The position numbers and the translations under genes were made by a program. A stretch of DNA of 26,279 nt from Chiloscyllium plagiosum (taxonomy: Eukaryota), in assembly GCF_004010195.1 (NCBI RefSeq), contig NC_057718.1:5719807-5746085 (forward strand), read 5' to 3'. Shown here in pieces: positions 3,965 to 21,855 of this stretch. The notes below the pieces were generated by a model, which worked only from the letters and a program-made list of their open reading frames with translations, was not told the origin of the DNA and did no database searches. Numbering within the stretch: position 1 is the stretch's first letter; each line of letters begins with the position of its first letter.

Positions 3965-4245
3965 GTTGCCAATTGAGGAATAAATATTGGACAGCAGGAC
4001 ACTGGGCGGATGAAAAACTCCTCTGCTCCTAAGAATAGCACCAGTTGGGCCTTTATATTCACCAGGGAGGGTAGAAAAGGTCTTGGTATAATATCCCAAC
4101 CAAAGACATGGCATCTATCTCCTACAGATTGGCACTACCTCATTACTGCACTGGGAGTGTTGCCCTGAAGTATTTACTCAAGTCTCTCAAATGGGATTAA
4201 ACTGATGACCTACTGATGCAGGGACAAGATTACCACTCACCATGG
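3965..4245 (-). mobile_element. DeuSINE (SacSINE1/AmnSINE-like) remnant
   Basis: Recognised Deu-type segments gaggaataaatattgg...ggacac and gcactacctcattactgcactgggagtgt...ctcaagtctct. Related pieces at about 3090-3180, 16575-16680 and 19925-20080. Confidence 0.55.
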
Positions 4246-4520
4246 TAAATCTTATAGCATGGGGAGTGACATAGCTGGTGAGGTTGTTTAAAACACAGTT
4301 AGATATTGTTAAGCATGGAGGTTCTGCATGAACAACCACCTTGAGTTTTCCCAATCTCGTGACTCATTTTCGTGCAGCCCTAGTGAACTATCCACTTGCT
4401 CCCATTTAGTTCATGTTGCATAAACAGCTGTTGCCCCTGTCCAATGTGGTCGAACACAGTGAGCTCTTGTTGAACTATCACTATGTTGTGATTCTGTTCG
4501 CCGAGCTGGGAATTTGTGTT

Positions 4521-4560
4521 GCAGACGTTTCGTCCCCTGTCTAGGTGACATCCTCAGTGC
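4521..4560 (-). ncRNA. Minimal type-I hammerhead ribozyme, core intact
   Basis: Minus strand: gca-CUGAGGA-u-GUCACCU-agac-AGGGGAC-GAAAC-GUC-ugc. Stem I gca/ugc, stem II 6 of 7 pairs, loopless palindromic ACGU stem III. Confidence 0.8.
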
Positions 4561-4663
4561 TTGGGAGCCTCCTGTGAAACGCTTCTGTGTTGTTTCCTCC
4601 GGCATTTATAGTGGTTTGCCACAGAACACAATAACACAGAAGCGTTTCACAGGAGGGTCCCAA

Positions 4664-4703
4664 GCACTGAGGGTGTCACCTAGACAGGGGACGAAACGTC
4701 TGC
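4664..4703 (+). ncRNA. Mirror hammerhead copy with a core substitution (CUGAGGG, A9 to G)
   Basis: gcactgagggtgtcacctagacaggggacgaaacgtctgc; identical to the minus copy except at position 4673. Confidence 0.7.
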
Positions 4704-4852
4704 AACACAAATTCCCAGCTCGGCGAACAGAACCACAACAACGAGCACCCGAGCTACAAATCTTCTCCCAAAGTTTGAAGAACTATCACTATGTTTTTTA
4801 ACGCTCAGTGATGTCTGAGACAGGAAAATGATGTGCAGAATCTTTCTTACAG

Positions 4853-4932
4853 ATGAAGACATCGATTTGAAGAGGCTTGCTGAAAATGAAGAGAGTTCAT
4901 GTCTGGAAACCATCCAGATTCTAAAGTCCAAG
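4853..4932 (+). CDS. MTRF1L: MTRF1L internal coding exon (probable exon 2), (D)EDIDLKRLAENEESSCLETIQILKSK
   Basis: Acceptor tctttcttacAG (4851-52) and donor AAG|gtaata. 80 bp, phase 1 to 0, joining in frame to the next exon. Peptide resembles the 'DENEDLRKLAENE' segment of MTRF1L. Not in the ORF track; read by hand. Confidence 0.85.
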
Positions 4933-5739
4933 GTAATAATCTGACCGGGAATGTGTCGGATTAGTGGAAAAATGAGAATCAGGGAATGGGAAAAGAACAT
5001 TTAGTTTGTCAAACCTGCCACTTCTCCATCTCATAGATTCCCGGGATAAGTCAGGAAAGGCAACAGATGATTCAAAGAAGAGGAGGTTTTGTGCCATGGA
5101 GCTGAGCTGAGGGAGGAGGTGGAGCTATGTCATATAGTTGGAAGTGGATGGTGTTGGTGGTGGAGCAGAAGGAATTCACAAACTCACATCTTGTTGAAAG
5201 AGATAGGTTTGGTGTCAGAAATTAGCACCAGATCACAGACCCCCTGGCATGAAAAATACTGCTCTCTGTGCAGTCACACAAGAGCGTGTTCCAGGTATTC
5301 AGTCCACATATTCTGTAAATGAAATGCAGGATGTCTCGTTGTGAGACTATGGACAGACTATTTCAAACATGGGAGTCCTTGTCAACCATTGCTCCCTGGA
5401 GGAATAGCTTGGGATCATTCTGTGTGGTTTTCTGCCCCAGTGCCAGAAATGCTGCCAGCATGGTGAAGCTTAAATGCTGAGTAAGAGAAGAATAAGGTTG
5501 GTACTGTGTTTAGGGTCCTTTAGGGGAGGAGGACCCTAAAGAGAGTCCTTACCCTCACAATGATAGAGAAGGATTTGGGTCCAAAGGTTACAATGGGGAA
5601 AGTGTTTTGACTTGCAGACCTGGCCATCAGCAGCCAGTCAATTAAGTTTTCGCACTTTGTTGAAACTTTGCCTTTCTTTCGCTTCTGCCCTGCTCCATAT
5701 CCCCCCTCCCCCTCCAAAAAAAAAACGTTTTTGTTTCAG

Positions 5740-5923
5740 ATAATTTCACTCCTGATCCCCACTGAAGAAGCGGACGATAATGATCTGATTCTGGAGGTGA
5801 CTGCGGGAGTCGGGGGACAGGAGGCCATGTTGTTCACCGCTGAGATGTTCGAAATGTACCAGAATTACGCCTCCTACAAAAACTGGCAGTTTGAGGTTCT
5901 GGATTACTGCCACAGCGATATTG
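5740..5923 (+). CDS. MTRF1L: MTRF1L coding exon (probable exon 3), [61 protein letters not shown](G)
   Basis: Lies within ORF 5668..5997. Acceptor ttgtttcAG, donor G|gtatgt, 184 bp. Release-factor PCRF signature LEVxAGxGGxEA. Confidence 0.95.
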
Positions 5924-6302
5924 GTATGTGCACTGTAGTTTCGTATTCCGTACAGTTCAAGAAGGCGGCTCAACACCATCTTGCCGAGGGTAACTAAGGA
6001 TGGGCAATAAGTACTGGTGTAACCAGAAATGCTTACATCCAGGACGTATTAAAAGACAGCAGAGCCTTACAATCTCTGCATGGCCTTGCTGACGGAGTAC
6101 AGAGACCTCAGAAGCTTTTAGAACTGAAAGACATGTCAGAGATAGAGAGATATGATACTTCCTGACTCCGTGATCTCTTCAGCTGTAGAGCTTTCTGAAA
6201 TCCCTGTCCTCCTTCATTTTGGTTTGCTGCAAATTCTCCATTTTAATCACTCTGATTATGGCCGAAGAATATGTTAGAAGAACAAGAATTTTAATTTATA
6301 TC

Positions 6303-8689: not shown

Positions 8690-8771
8690 AATGGCCTTGG
8701 TATGCAGTTATGATCTGATTGTTTTACTGTTCCTGTAAGCTAGTATTAAAAGTTGGTCTTTTATTTCACAG

Positions 8772-8935
8772 GGGGTCTGCGTCATGCTGCAGCTAGTGTG
8801 AGTGGCCCGGAGACTTACAAACACATGAAGTACGAGGGGGGAGTGCATAGAGTCCAGCGGATTCCCAAAACTGAAAAACAAGGCAGGACTCACACCAGCA
8901 CAATGACCGTCGCCATCCTACCACAGCCCACTGAG
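8772..8935 (+). CDS. MTRF1L: MTRF1L coding exon (probable exon 4) with the PxT stop-codon recognition motif, (G)[54 protein letters not shown]
   Basis: Acceptor ttatttcacAG, donor GAG|gtatt, 164 bp. [14 protein letters not shown] is the RF1 signature. A plain PKT tripeptide, without the extended loop of MTRF1, favours MTRF1L. Confidence 0.97.
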
Positions 8936-9084
8936 GTATTCACAATCTTCTCAGCAATTTGTACCAATTCCTGACTAAATTGACAGCTGCCCAAAGGTTT
9001 GTCTTAAAGGAGAAGAGGGAGGTGGAGTGCTTTTGGGGAGGAGTTGTAAAACTTAGGGAGCTGAAGGCACATCCATGATTACAA

Positions 9085-9365: not shown

Positions 9366-9839
9366 GTGTAAATCTGGAATATGCTTTCCAGTTTACAATG
9401 GTTATTTTACTAAGATAGTGCAAATCTAACCTGCTTCAGTTTATACAAAAATCTGGATGTATCAGAAAAAGTCTTACAAAACATGAACTGGTAGTAACTA
9501 TCCATTGTCTCCTATACGTGGCTTCATCCCCACACAATGTCTTTGACTCTTAATATTCTCTGATGTGGAATTAGCCATCAAGTTGTATCACCTTACCAAG
9601 AGAGAGATTTCAGTTTAAAAGGAGGAGAGAGAGAGAGGGACAGAGTGTTGGGGTGAATCTATTGGAGCTTGGATATCTGAGGACAAAGCCTCCAATGAAG
9701 GGCTTGAGGATGTTGGGGTTGTGTAAGAGGCTGGAATTAGACAGACTGTGGATATTTGCTGGACATGTAGTAATTGGATAGAATAATGGGTATGATCCAT
9801 GTCTTCACACATCTGATTAATCAATAATCTTGTTATCAG

Positions 9840-9957
9840 ATTGACATGACCATCAACCCCAAGGATCTGCGGATAGAGACAAAACGGGCAAGTGGAGCTG
9901 GTGGTCAGCATGTGAACACGACAGACAGTGCGGTTCGCATCCTGCACATCCCAACAG
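9840..9957 (+). CDS. MTRF1L: MTRF1L coding exon (probable exon 5) with the catalytic GGQ motif, [39 protein letters not shown](G)
   Basis: Acceptor tgttatcAG, donor G|gtaaca, 118 bp. [18 protein letters not shown] is the universal class-1 release factor motif. Confidence 0.97.
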
Positions 9958-10304
9958 GTAACAGCAGTCCCTTGCTCTCACCCAAGTGTACATCTGTAAT
10001 ACCGTGGGTTTCATTTGCAGTTACTGGAGAATTCTGACTGTGATGCTGAGATGAAAAAGTAATAATTGCATCCTTTTCTCAGTTAGTTGGTGAAGGAGGA
10101 GCATTACGTATCCTCAGTGAGTACGGTCACTGAGTTGGGAACATTGATGGGGATTCATTGGAACAATTTCTAGTATTATTTGTCTGTCATGCTTCCTGCA
10201 TTATGATGATAATTATATTAATTAAATGTATTTAATTGGCTACTTTGGGATCCTGAAATGCAGTTGCATTTGTTCTGATACTGGTTCATTCTGCCCCTTG
10301 GCAG

Positions 10305-10441
10305 GTGTGGCAGCTGAGTGCCAGCAGGAAAGGTCCCAGCTGAAAAATCGAGAAAAGGCGATGCAGATGCTGCGAGCGAAACTATACAGCATGAAGCTGG
10401 AGGAGCAAACTAACAAGAGACATTATGCTCGAAAGATTCAG
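10305..10441 (+). CDS. MTRF1L: MTRF1L coding exon (probable exon 6), (G)[45 protein letters not shown]
   Basis: Acceptor ccccttggcAG, donor CAG|gtacct, 137 bp, phase 1 to 0. [10 protein letters not shown] motif. Confidence 0.96.
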
Positions 10442-10687
10442 GTACCTCTGTGGCCTTGCTTTCAACTCCTCTTGGTTTTCCCCATGCTCCTGCTGAGTCT
10501 CCAGACTCATACAACTAGTTCCATTTCCACAGCAGTCAGCTCAAAGAGTGCCAGTCTGCCAGGGTGACTGTTGGGCTATTTGACTTTGGGAGGAATCACA
10601 GGGAGGTCCGATCCTGGCTTCATACAGGAATCACTCCACTGGGATATTCCCCTGTTCATTTGGCTCCCTGTCCAGTGTTTTTGCCTC

Positions 10688-16562: not shown

Positions 16563-17481
16563 AGATGATGTATTAGACAGTGCAGCCCTCACTCAGTGTT
16601 CCAGTGTGGGTGTCTGTGCTCAAGTCCTGAATTGGGAATTCCTAACCTTGTGACTTAGAGACGAACCACAGCTGATAATCTTGTTAAAGTATAAATATCT
16701 TTAAATCCCTTATCAAAGAGCCTTTTATAGTGATGCTGTGGAATTTAAGTAAGATTTCCAAATAAAAACTAACATAGACAATTTGCAGTTTTACTTACCC
16801 TATTGTAGAAATAGTATTAATGTAATCAGGCACTCCCAGGAGTTATCTGGGATGTGAGATTACAGTTCTGTCTGGAGCCCTGAGATACCAGGACTGTTTT
16901 CAGTTGAGCAGAAAAGGTTGTGAGGATATTGATTAGGTTGGAGTATCAAGAGATCTGAGTAAAGTGGAACTCAATCATGATCTGATTGAATGGCAGCATA
17001 GGTTGAAGGGGCTGAATGGCGTTTGTGTGTTCAACACTGGAGTAAGGTTCTAAAGCCTACTGAGTACCCTCAGTTAGTTTGCGATGAGATGTTTGCGTTG
17101 GTACATTTTGAAATAGAATGAGGCCATTCAGTGCCTCCAGTCTGTTTCGCCTCCATTCAATTAAATCATAGCCATTCTGCATCTTAACATCAACTATCCG
17201 TCTTAGTTTTGTATTCCCTGATCTCTCTGTTAACAAAATCTGTCACTTAATTGTGAAATGTTCGATTGACCCAGAACCTCAGTAGCGTCATGTAGGGAGA
17301 GAGTTCCAGATTTCCACTGAGCTGTGTGCGAGGAAGAAGCACTCTTGAGATCCTTCCTGAATGGCTTAGCTGCACATTAAAACTTGGGGCTCCTTTATTC
17401 TAGGCTCCCCAGGCAAATGGCATAAGTTCAGCCTGTCTTAAGTTACGAGTGATCTGCCAACTTCTCCAATTCTTTCTCCAG

Positions 17482-17712
17482 GTTGGGACCAAGGGAAGGT
17501 CGGAAAAAATCCGGACGTACAATTTCCCTCAAGATAGGATTACCGATCATCGGACTGGCAAGTCATTTCATGACTTGAGGACTTTCATGATGGGGGAGGA
17601 GCTCTTGGATGAGATGGTTGAAGATCTGAAGAGTCTGGCAGACAGTGAATCCCTTCTCGAGTTCCTGGAACAGAGTACATCGAGCCAGCAAAATGAGCAA
17701 AGACATCAGTGA
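17482..17712 (+). CDS. MTRF1L: MTRF1L terminal coding exon (probable exon 7), [24 protein letters not shown]...EQRHQ*
   Basis: Acceptor ttctttctccAG. [19 protein letters not shown] release-factor motif. TGA at 17710-17712. Confidence 0.96.
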
Positions 17713-20663: not shown

Positions 20664-21855
20664 CATAGAACATAGAACAATACAGCACAGACCAGGCCCT
20701 TCGGCCCACGATGTTGTGCTGAACATTTGTCCTAGCTTAAGCACCCATCCATGTACCTATCCAATTGCCACTTAAAGTTTGCCAATGATTCTGACTCTGC
20801 CACTCCCACAGGCAGCGCATTCCATACCCCCACCACTCTCTGGGTAAAGAACCCACCCCTGACATCTCCCCTATACCTTCCACCCTTCACCGTAAATTTA
20901 TGTCCCCTTGTAACACTCGGTTGTGCCCGGGGAAAAAGTTTCTGACTGTCTACTCTACCTATTCCTCTGATCATCTTATAAACCTCTATCAAGTCACCCC
21001 TCATCCTTCGCCGTTCCAACGAGAAAAGGCCGAGAACTCTCAACCTAGCCTCGTACGACTTCCTCTCNNNNNNNNNNNNNNNNNNNNNNNNNNNNNNNNN
21101 NNNNNNNNNNNNNNNNNNNNNNNNNNNNNNNNNNNNNNNNNNNNNNNNNNNNNNNNNNNNNNNNNNNNNNNNNNNNNNNNNNNNNNNNNNNNNNNNNNNN
21201 NNNNNNNNNNNNNNNNNNNNNNNNNNNNNNNNNNNNNNNNNNNNNNNNNNNNNNNNNNNNNNNNNNNNNNNNNNNNNNNNNNNNNNNNNNNNNNNNNNNN
21301 NNNNNNNNNNNNNNNNNNNNNNNNNNNNNNNNNNNNNNNNNNNNNNNNNNNNNNNNNNNNNNNNNNNNNNNNNNNNNNNNNNNNNNNNNNNNNNNNNNNN
21401 NNNNNNNNNNNNNNNNNNNNNNNNNNNNNNNNNNNNNNNNNNNNNNNNNNNNNNNNNNNNNNNNNNNNNNNNNCTCCTCACTATCCACAGCTCCACCAAT
21501 CTTCGTATCATCTGCAAATTTACTGACCCACCCTTTGACTCCCTCATCCAAGTCATTAAAATCCATGTATACTACATCCACTGCTCTACCCTCATCCACA
21601 TGCTTGGTCACCTCCTCAAAGAATTCAATAAGACTTGTAAGGCAAGACCTACCCTTCACAAATCCGTGCTGGCTGTCCCTAATCAAGCAGTGTCTTTCCA
21701 GATCTCATAAATCCTATCCCTCAGTACCCTTTCCATTACTTTGCCTACCACCGAAGTAAGACTAACTGGCGTGTAATTCCCAGGGTTATCCCAATCCCTT
21801 TTTTGAATAGGGGCACAACATTCGCCACTTTCCAATCCCCTGGTACCACCCCTGT
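20664..21855 (-). mobile_element. CR1 LINE fragment spanning the assembly gap, with internal deletions
   Basis: Minus ORFs with QHGFVKGRSCLT, FADDTKIGG and FFTQRVV; catagaacatagaa tail. Confidence 0.9.
21068..21473. other. Assembly gap (406 N)
   Basis: Run of N. Confidence 1.

Follow-up and report, generated by a model that had tools for sequence, protein, structure and literature searches.

A fold-back insertion in a shark MTRF1L intron as a probable product of Penelope-like element integration

What kind of event places two nearly identical sequences head to head inside one short target site duplication (TSD), each with a hammerhead ribozyme motif, in the intron of a gene? The question is raised by a fold-back element at positions 4472 to 4795 of a 26,279-nucleotide stretch of the genome of the shark Chiloscyllium plagiosum (NCBI RefSeq assembly GCF_004010195.1, contig NC_057718.1, positions 5,719,807 to 5,746,085 of the forward strand), just upstream of an exon of the release factor gene MTRF1L. 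The whole stretch is referred to here as the window, and coordinates are window positions unless another sequence is named. A preliminary description, made from the sequence alone, saw in the element a young, non-coding insertion with two opposed hammerhead ribozymes and likened it to Penelope-like elements (PLEs). Our analysis leads us to conclude that the fold-back is very probably a dead-on-arrival insertion of a canonical endonuclease-bearing PLE, in which a single integration event left two head-to-head, 5'-truncated copies of the 3' end of the element. The locus is of a well-described kind, a PLE fold-back with minimal hammerhead ribozyme (min-HHR) motifs, in a new host family, and the motifs are passengers of the minimal type without helix III that PLE terminal repeats carry.

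Architecture of the fold-back and its recurrence in the genome

The inverted repeat and the TSD around it are real and lie far beyond chance. The two arms, at 4484-4594 and 4630-4740, are 111 nt long, 96% complementary and separated by 35 nt, and their alignment shows 4 mismatches across the 111-nt overlap, an arm divergence of 3.6%. The preliminary description had recognized this inverted repeat correctly, and its figures of 108 bp, three mismatches and a 41-nt spacer are replaced by these values. A direct repeat at 4467-4487 and 4775-4795 (21 nt, 90%) encloses the arms and holds an exact 16-nt core, found by repeat search at 4472-4487 and 4780-4795, which is the 16-bp TSD claimed before; TGTT, the last 4 nt of its left copy, may just as well close the inverted arm, as a microhomology. 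Besides the TSD there is no direct repeat at the locus, and neither a tandem copy nor an upstream direct pseudo-long terminal repeat (pseudo-LTR) copy is present.

The element is asymmetric. On the plus strand, 38 nt at 4741-4778 form a tail that separates the right arm from the TSD. Nothing on the left corresponds to it: there the inverted, minus-strand arm (4484-4622) is tail-less, its outer end falling at family position q111, where the tail begins. Comparison with 29 other copies places the inner end of this inverted arm about 28 nt further in than the repeat search did, at about 4622, and the start of the direct arm (4632-4740, plus strand, sense to the host gene) at about 4632; other copies extend beyond the inner end of the inverted arm, with loose contig ends at 4614 and 4618. 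What had been taken for a spacer is mostly a continuation of the inverted arm, and about 9 nt of filler or microhomology remain at the head-to-head junction (4623-4631, boundaries approximate), where CACAGAA of the direct-arm start is repeated. The total insertion is 292 bp. RNA of 4472-4860 folds as a single long hairpin with a minimum free energy of -249 kcal/mol, against -105.8 +/- 5.9 for shuffled sequences (z = -24.5, 0 of 100 as good), and the earlier expectation of a long hairpin able to bury the ribozyme motif is borne out by this folding. One of the differences between the arms, at 4567/4657 (C against G in CACAGGAGG[C/G]TC), coincides with a site that is polymorphic across family copies; it could reflect two template RNAs or a mutable site.

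The same layout recurs throughout the genome. Among 30 loci picked by similarity to the tailed arm, the window copy included, 14 (again with the window copy) are fold-backs with an abutting TSD of 9 to 16 bp, median 13, and in all 14 its two copies adjoin different ends, one a tail-less inverted arm and the other a tailed direct arm. Their TSDs are 72% A+T, compared with 56% in the window. The outer ends of the inverted arms fall at q108-114 in most of them, two loci (L003 and L021) being matched only to q88 and q91. A second sample was chosen by the exact hammerhead 35-mer alone, ignoring the tail: the first 100 sites of this 35-mer on contig C1 form 12 neighbor pairs at distances of up to 1.1 kb, all of them head-to-head (-,+) and none in another order, and at longer distances a single (+,+) pair, 1,191 nt apart, and a single (-,-) pair, 2,267 nt apart. 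In 10 of these 12 head-to-head pairs the two arms stop at different points, q135-149 for one and q106-113 for the other, and a TSD of 10 to 15 bp abuts them; in the remaining 2 the match of the second arm stops early (q83 and q88), and no pair has two tails or none. The one-tail pattern with an abutting TSD is observed in 24 fold-backs, namely, that of the window and those at 23 other loci. Insert lengths differ from copy to copy, ranging from 292 to 1,244 bp in the 14 loci of the first sample and from 203 to 1,198 bp in the 10 of the second.

The two termini that delimit the tail are sharp. Contig ends of other copies pile up exactly at 4740 and 4779, with counts of 110 and 93, 76 and 70, and 101 and 103 in three sequencing runs, and past these ends the contigs enter AT-rich sequence with no consensus. 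The preliminary description had proposed a genome-wide look at copy number and TSD length; the family proves very abundant, the TSDs of the sampled fold-backs are AT-rich and 9 to 16 bp long, and the fold-back is, on the evidence of these copies, a regular product of the family.

The source family and the route of integration

The sequence in the arms belongs to a much larger element. With the right arm and tail as the query, the 3.56-Gb genome yields at least 40 scored copies at 95 to 98% identity and 1,100 first-look candidates. All 30 fetched copies share a common 3' end, and they extend in the 5' direction by anything between about 140 nt and over 850 nt; a fixed 3' end with variable 5' ends is what the copies of a retroelement would be expected to display, and we read it as such behavior here. 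Longer copies carry an open reading frame (ORF) directly upstream of the hammerhead (P0001, 191 amino acids), whose last codons run through the part that is present in the arms and whose stop codon (TAG) sits within helix II and loop 2 of the hammerhead, so the label non-coding does not hold for the arms. P0001 contains a VVY...YIG...R..EH block and a C..C pair, its nearest Atlas clusters are eukaryotic GIY-YIG proteins (score 0.95), and it aligns (E = 3e-21) to residues 656-797 of an 828-residue relative, P0012. The latter has an RVT_1 domain at 343-534 followed by a GIY-YIG domain at 706-746, both over the Pfam cut-offs, and RVT_1 is found in relatives of the upstream ORF (E = 1.5e-11 in P0012, 1.2e-10 in P0014, and 2.9e-08 in P0007). 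The order RVT_1 then GIY-YIG is that of a canonical endonuclease-bearing PLE, to which we assign the family by homology. The earlier suggestion of a PLE with an inverted 5' segment and a minimal hammerhead of the PLE terminal repeat type is right.

A fragment of the upstream ORF gives 99,744 first-look candidates in the genome. The named proteins nearest to the ORF are from Chiloscyllium punctatum (87 to 90% identity), Hemiscyllium ocellatum (80%), and Stegostoma tigrinum (57%), which marks the host as an orectolobiform shark and agrees with the sharks named in the preliminary description. Two predicted C. punctatum proteins, MAP3K7 isoform X3 and NT5DC1 isoform X3 (P0005 and P0008), contain a stretch that is 82 to 90% identical to the PLE endonuclease fragment, which suggests that these isoforms include exonized or misannotated PLE pieces in gene models. 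Our literature searches did not find this shark PLE family or its hammerhead described; Penelope is listed among the repeats of the whale shark.

The architecture of the insertion is a familiar one for PLEs. Evgen'ev and Arkhipova reportedly described it in 2005 as 5' truncation, an adjacent inverted copy, and a tail of 30 to 40 bp at one end. The account of Craig et al. (2021, PMC8557442) likewise gives 5' truncation, an adjacent inverted 5'-truncated copy, and a 30- to 40-bp tail at one end only. Each of these three traits is found here, with a 38-nt tail on one arm in the window and in the 23 other fold-backs, whereas the upstream direct pseudo-LTR or tandem copy of that account is absent at the shark locus with its 292-bp insertion. 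A closer parallel is offered by the PLE protein of PAc (Poseidon of Anolis carolinensis), which cleaves and extends both target strands at AT-rich targets (Frangieh et al., 2024, PMC11167929). Its reverse transcription begins at two adjacent internal start sites in an AC-rich stem loop, the tail being the sequence between them, and hammerhead cleavage is protein assisted and dispensable for insertion in vitro (PMC11167929). Like the PAc products, the shark fold-backs have two alternative 3' termini, 38 nt apart, with the proximal one in an AC-rich stretch of a predicted stem loop, and they share with PAc the AT-rich targets, complementary DNA (cDNA) on both strands, and a template that was not cleaved at the hammerhead. 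The last point follows from the arms, both of which run through the hammerhead cleavage site. The stem loop in question is a predicted 7-bp stem (AGCUCGG/CCGAGCU) at 4717-4755 on the plus strand, whose 25-nt AC-rich loop holds the tail-less terminus at 4740; its predicted folding is no better than that of shuffled sequences (z = -1.23, 20 of 200 as good). In contrast to PAc, where the hammerhead overlaps the start of the ORF, it overlaps the end of the ORF in the shark family.

These parallels suggest the following route. The PLE endonuclease would cut the two target strands 16 bp apart, giving rise to the TSD, and each 3'-OH would prime reverse transcription of PLE RNA. The cDNA begun at the distal start site would become the arm with the 38-nt tail, and that begun at the proximal start site, in the AC-rich stretch, would become the tail-less inverted arm. 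Both cDNAs would reach about 140 to 150 nt, past the hammerhead, and a short microhomology would then serve to join them. Our data show the architecture, the TSDs, the family membership, the two termini and the one-tail rule; that both strands are primed is what we infer from the published in vitro work. Copy-back of a nascent cDNA is a less good fit, because it offers no reason why the inverted arm should end at one specific internal position.

The 5' inversions of L1 elements arise by twin priming, in which the inverted segment derives from another region of the RNA, nearer its 5' end. The shark fold-backs resemble them in having an inverted 5' segment from target-primed reverse transcription inside one TSD and differ from them in that both arms span one and the same region of the element, each with a specific 3' start.

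The hammerhead motifs

The two motifs differ in their cores. In the left arm, on the minus strand (4557-4524), the motif reads CUGAGGA, a bulged U, helix II, loop AGAC, and then GAAAC GUC, with predicted cleavage 3' of C at 4524. A descriptor script finds in it a bulge of 1 and the stem GTCACCT/AGGGGAC with 6 pairs and one A.G mismatch, that is, a 7-position helix II. The unpaired nucleotide after A9, the G10.1-C11.1 pair, the long helix II, and the palindromic 15.2-16.2 without helix III are all present. The right-arm motif (4667-4700, plus strand), which is sense to the gene, reads CUGAGGG, and its conserved core fails at A9 (G at 4673). The claim of two hammerhead ribozymes holds in part: one motif, antisense to the gene, has an intact core, and the other carries the A9G change. 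The exact hammerhead 35-mer occurs 7,175 times in the genome with A9 and 61 times with A9G, and because the A9G form is so rare, it is most likely a later mutation or copying error in the window. One head-to-head pair elsewhere (G000:C2:9472302-9472808) carries the rare A9G (61 of 7,236 copies) on both arms, which suggests that both arms of that fold-back were copied from one source RNA or locus.

Cervera and de la Pena (2014, PMC4209133) describe metazoan PLE minimal hammerheads in which helix II has 7 to 8 bp, helix I is short, the nucleotide following A9 is unpaired, the G10.1-C11.1 pair and the palindromic 15.2-16.2 are present, and helix III is missing. They also describe "dual" motifs on opposite strands about 100 to 700 bp apart and activity that was weak in vitro and seen with dimers only. 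The shark motif shares with these the CUGANGA core, the one unpaired nucleotide between A9 and 10.1, the G10.1-C11.1 pair, the long helix II (7 positions here), and GAAA followed by palindromic ACGU, helix III and loop 3 being absent, a layout which implies that the motif acts as a dimer; opposite-strand pairs 100 to 700 bp apart and massive copy number are shared as well. It departs from the hammerheads described in that study in its 3-bp helix I, the A.G mismatch in helix II, the ORF stop codon inside the motif, and the A9G change in one copy.

A relaxed minimal-hammerhead pattern gives 56,186 + 56,155 = 112,341 matches in the whole genome, compared with 12 + 13 = 25 for a reversed-pattern control. 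Published figures for other genomes are about 4,000 in the coelacanth and about 9,000 in Xenopus (PMC4209133), obtained with different descriptors and not strictly comparable. Most of the shark matches come from another family, whose 4-bp helix II (GGGC/GCCC) is unrelated and whose core, bulge, closing pair, and GAAAC GUC are the same; the structure of the motif is conserved across families.

Ribozyme activity in MTRF1L pre-mRNA seems very unlikely. The direct, tailed arm is sense to the gene, and the only sense-strand hammerhead in the pre-mRNA is consequently the A9G copy; most substitutions in the hammerhead core strongly lower cleavage, as classical mutagenesis has established. The sense motif is single, mutated at A9, and would be paired to its antisense copy in a 111-bp duplex, and since each transcript has one sense and one antisense copy, no hammerhead dimer can form in cis. 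The min-HHR is reported to act only as a dimer or with the protein of the element (PMC4209133, PMC11167929).

The window contains a second, unrelated hammerhead insertion at 489-683 on the minus strand. This unit has a fixed length of 192 nt, gives 2,575 first-look candidates, is flanked by the 16-nt TSD CTGCCTTGCCTTATTT, and folds as a rod-like hairpin whose apex bears a single minimal hammerhead (CUGAAGA A GGGC UUAU GCCC GAAAC GUC); the folding energy is -146.7 kcal/mol (z = -17.7). By these features it looks like a non-autonomous element of the short interspersed element (SINE)-like or retrozyme-like kind.

Host gene, age of the insertion, and competing explanations

The insertion is intronic and ends 57 nt before the exon that starts at 4853. 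The host gene is a plus-strand class I release factor gene with Pfam PCRF exons at 5611-5994 and 8750-8971 and RF-1 exons at 9828-10034, 10226-10564, and 17404-17709, and its best match among solved structures is MTRF1L (7nqh_BL, E = 1.1e-26), as compared with MTRF1 (E = 3.9e-16). The earlier assignment of an MTRF1L exon just downstream stands at the level of the gene; the exon at 4853-4935 (plus strand, 3' end approximate, with higher contig depth of run X5 at 4851-4943) matches residues 66-97 of MTRF1L weakly on its own (E = 0.11). Within this exon, position 4860 is C in the window and T in all three DNA-type runs (X1, X5, and X12), an individual variant or an assembly error. The same intron region holds plus-strand remnants of long interspersed elements (positions 1-249 and 1614-2690), with matches to Exo_endo_phos (E = 4.6e-05) and RVT_1 (E = 1e-11 and 0.0017), and the window includes 406 N at 21068-21473.

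The insertion was described as young, which our data do not favor. In run X1 the contigs agree with the window at every position of 4200-4511 and depart from it once in 4750-5100, at 4860. In a second related species (organism B, run X12), a contig covers 4200-4511 with 10 differences in 312 nt and enters the element at the same junction, and the right-flank contig begins at 4794 and does not bridge its junction; the check for an empty site in a related shark thus speaks for presence on the left and leaves the right junction unbridged. The flanks of the two species diverge by 10/312 and 8/307, about 3%. Because the second species has the left junction and the arm divergence of 3.6% is similar to that of the flanks, the insertion appears to predate the split of both species and to have been decaying neutrally since. 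In run X5, which another study produced from the same species, the contig of the left flank ends at 4487 with 7 unfitting letters, and depth is zero at 4789-4850; this ending could be a variant or alternative allele and is too little to call an empty allele.

Several points weigh against the proposed explanation. The GIY-YIG match of P0001 itself in Pfam is weak (E = 0.031, below cut-off), and P0002, which is 88% identical and the closest relative with a reverse transcriptase match, reaches 27.4 bits, under the Pfam cut-off of 29.6; the reverse transcriptase of the shark family is presumed from relatives. Helix I in cis has 3 bp (GCA/UGC), whereas the published family typically has 4 to 5 bp, and the published D. 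virilis variant has 2 bp (PMC4209133). The search with Rfam hammerhead models that the preliminary description had proposed gave no match in the window at gathering score, nor in 4440-4830 at E values up to 10; such a miss is expected because the motif has no helix III, and the Rfam microRNA and small nucleolar RNA matches are of a generic long-hairpin kind far under gathering scores. Folded alone (61 nt), each motif does no better than shuffled sequences (z = +0.65 and -0.30), a test that is uninformative for a dimer-type motif. Conservation of the core above background was also expected, and the outcome is mixed: when sets of four positions are opened over the 7,175 exact copies, the core gains 456 variants (C3 U4 G5 A6) and 362 (G8 A9 A13 A14), compared with 785 (loop 2) and 542 (N7, bulge, and mismatch pair) outside it. 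The core is about 0.6 times as variable as the rest, a modest signal that is confounded by neutral decay of dead copies and mutation bias and that neither proves nor refutes constraint; only a modest signal is expected because most copies are dead on arrival. In PAc, no difference between strands in start-site use was seen in vitro (PMC11167929), whereas each shark fold-back has exactly one tailed and one tail-less end, and the in vitro result does not by itself predict so strict a one-tail rule. Finally, no read or contig spans the palindrome, junction contigs reaching 24 to 30 nt into the element with a bridging rule of 31 nt in our contig check.

The last point would suit an assembly artefact, in which the palindrome is a chimeric join or combines two separate copies, since the arms are spanned by no contig in any of the three DNA-type runs, and PLE tandem and inverted structures are noted to trouble assemblies (PMC8557442). 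However, both junctions are present in contigs of run X1, which differs from the window at 4860 and so is no mere copy of it, the second species shows the left junction too, an exact 16-bp TSD encloses the arm pair, and the same architecture with abutting TSDs exists at 23 other loci, all of which makes an artefact highly improbable. Least probable of all is a miniature inverted-repeat or foldback-type DNA transposon with terminal inverted repeats, to which long inverted arms within a direct duplication might point; this candidate is contradicted by the asymmetric ends, with the 38-nt extension at one end only, and by TSDs that vary from 9 to 16 bp between copies, and it does not sit with a fixed 3' end, variable inner ends, and arms that are the 3' end of an element of the reverse transcriptase/endonuclease type.

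There is slightly more room, if still very little, for the view that the fold-back is itself a non-autonomous mobile unit, a retrozyme- or SINE-like hairpin copied whole from a master and mobilized in trans by PLE enzymes. Non-LTR retrozymes of animals were reportedly described by Cervera and de la Pena in 2020. The shark fold-backs are, like these and the hammerhead SINE-like elements of a preprint (Li et al., 2026), short non-coding hammerhead sequences related to PLE repeats; the preprint argues for a PLE-repeat origin of animal retrozymes, and the 192-nt element with its apical hammerhead and 16-nt TSD at 489-683 demonstrates that fixed-length hairpin hammerhead elements exist here. Unlike the retrozymes of those accounts, the fold-backs lack tandem direct repeats and a fixed unit length: their inner junctions and insert lengths vary per copy, each has its own TSD, and the sequence of their arms runs collinear with the 3' end of a family that carries an ORF. 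A non-LTR retrozyme was rejected at the MTRF1L locus, where the only direct repeat is the TSD and the motifs lie on opposite strands, so that a single transcript can give neither a hammerhead dimer nor a circle of unit length. Just as improbable is co-option by the host, whereby the intronic hairpin or ribozyme motif would modulate MTRF1L splicing or RNA stability or yield functional edited or small RNAs. The position 57 nt upstream of a 3' splice site, the apparent retention in a second species, and the 111-bp near-perfect RNA duplex that would form in the pre-mRNA could be taken in its favor; yet the arms have diverged about as much as the flanks have between species, as in neutral decay, the ribozyme core of the sense copy carries one of the four arm differences, and this fold-back is one among thousands of similar fold-backs. 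A host function of the insertion is unlikely, and the PLE insertion is most likely a presumably neutral intronic passenger retained in two related shark species.

For the host gene the insertion is probably of no importance, being one of thousands of similar dead fragments, and a caution for annotation is that Rfam models miss such hammerheads entirely. How PLE integration intermediates resolve is described as still undefined in both PMC8557442 and PMC11167929. Each resolved fold-back has one tailed and one tail-less end, and the two termini occur at about 1:1 genome-wide and in the second species, which leads us to speculate, with considerable doubt, that PLE integration in vivo may normally be a two-ended reaction of a dimeric particle whose two strands are extended from different reverse transcription start sites, with head-to-head fold-backs as the default outcome. 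If this were true, transcribed fold-backs could seed the fixed-length hairpin hammerhead elements, such as the 192-nt unit at 489-683, that would make up the bulk of the 112,341 matches. What gives the finding its value is the family: this shark genome preserves an exceptionally rich natural archive of PLE integration products, and the one-tail rule and the two sharp termini correspond in vivo to what was reported in vitro in 2024, namely, two start sites and extension of both strands.

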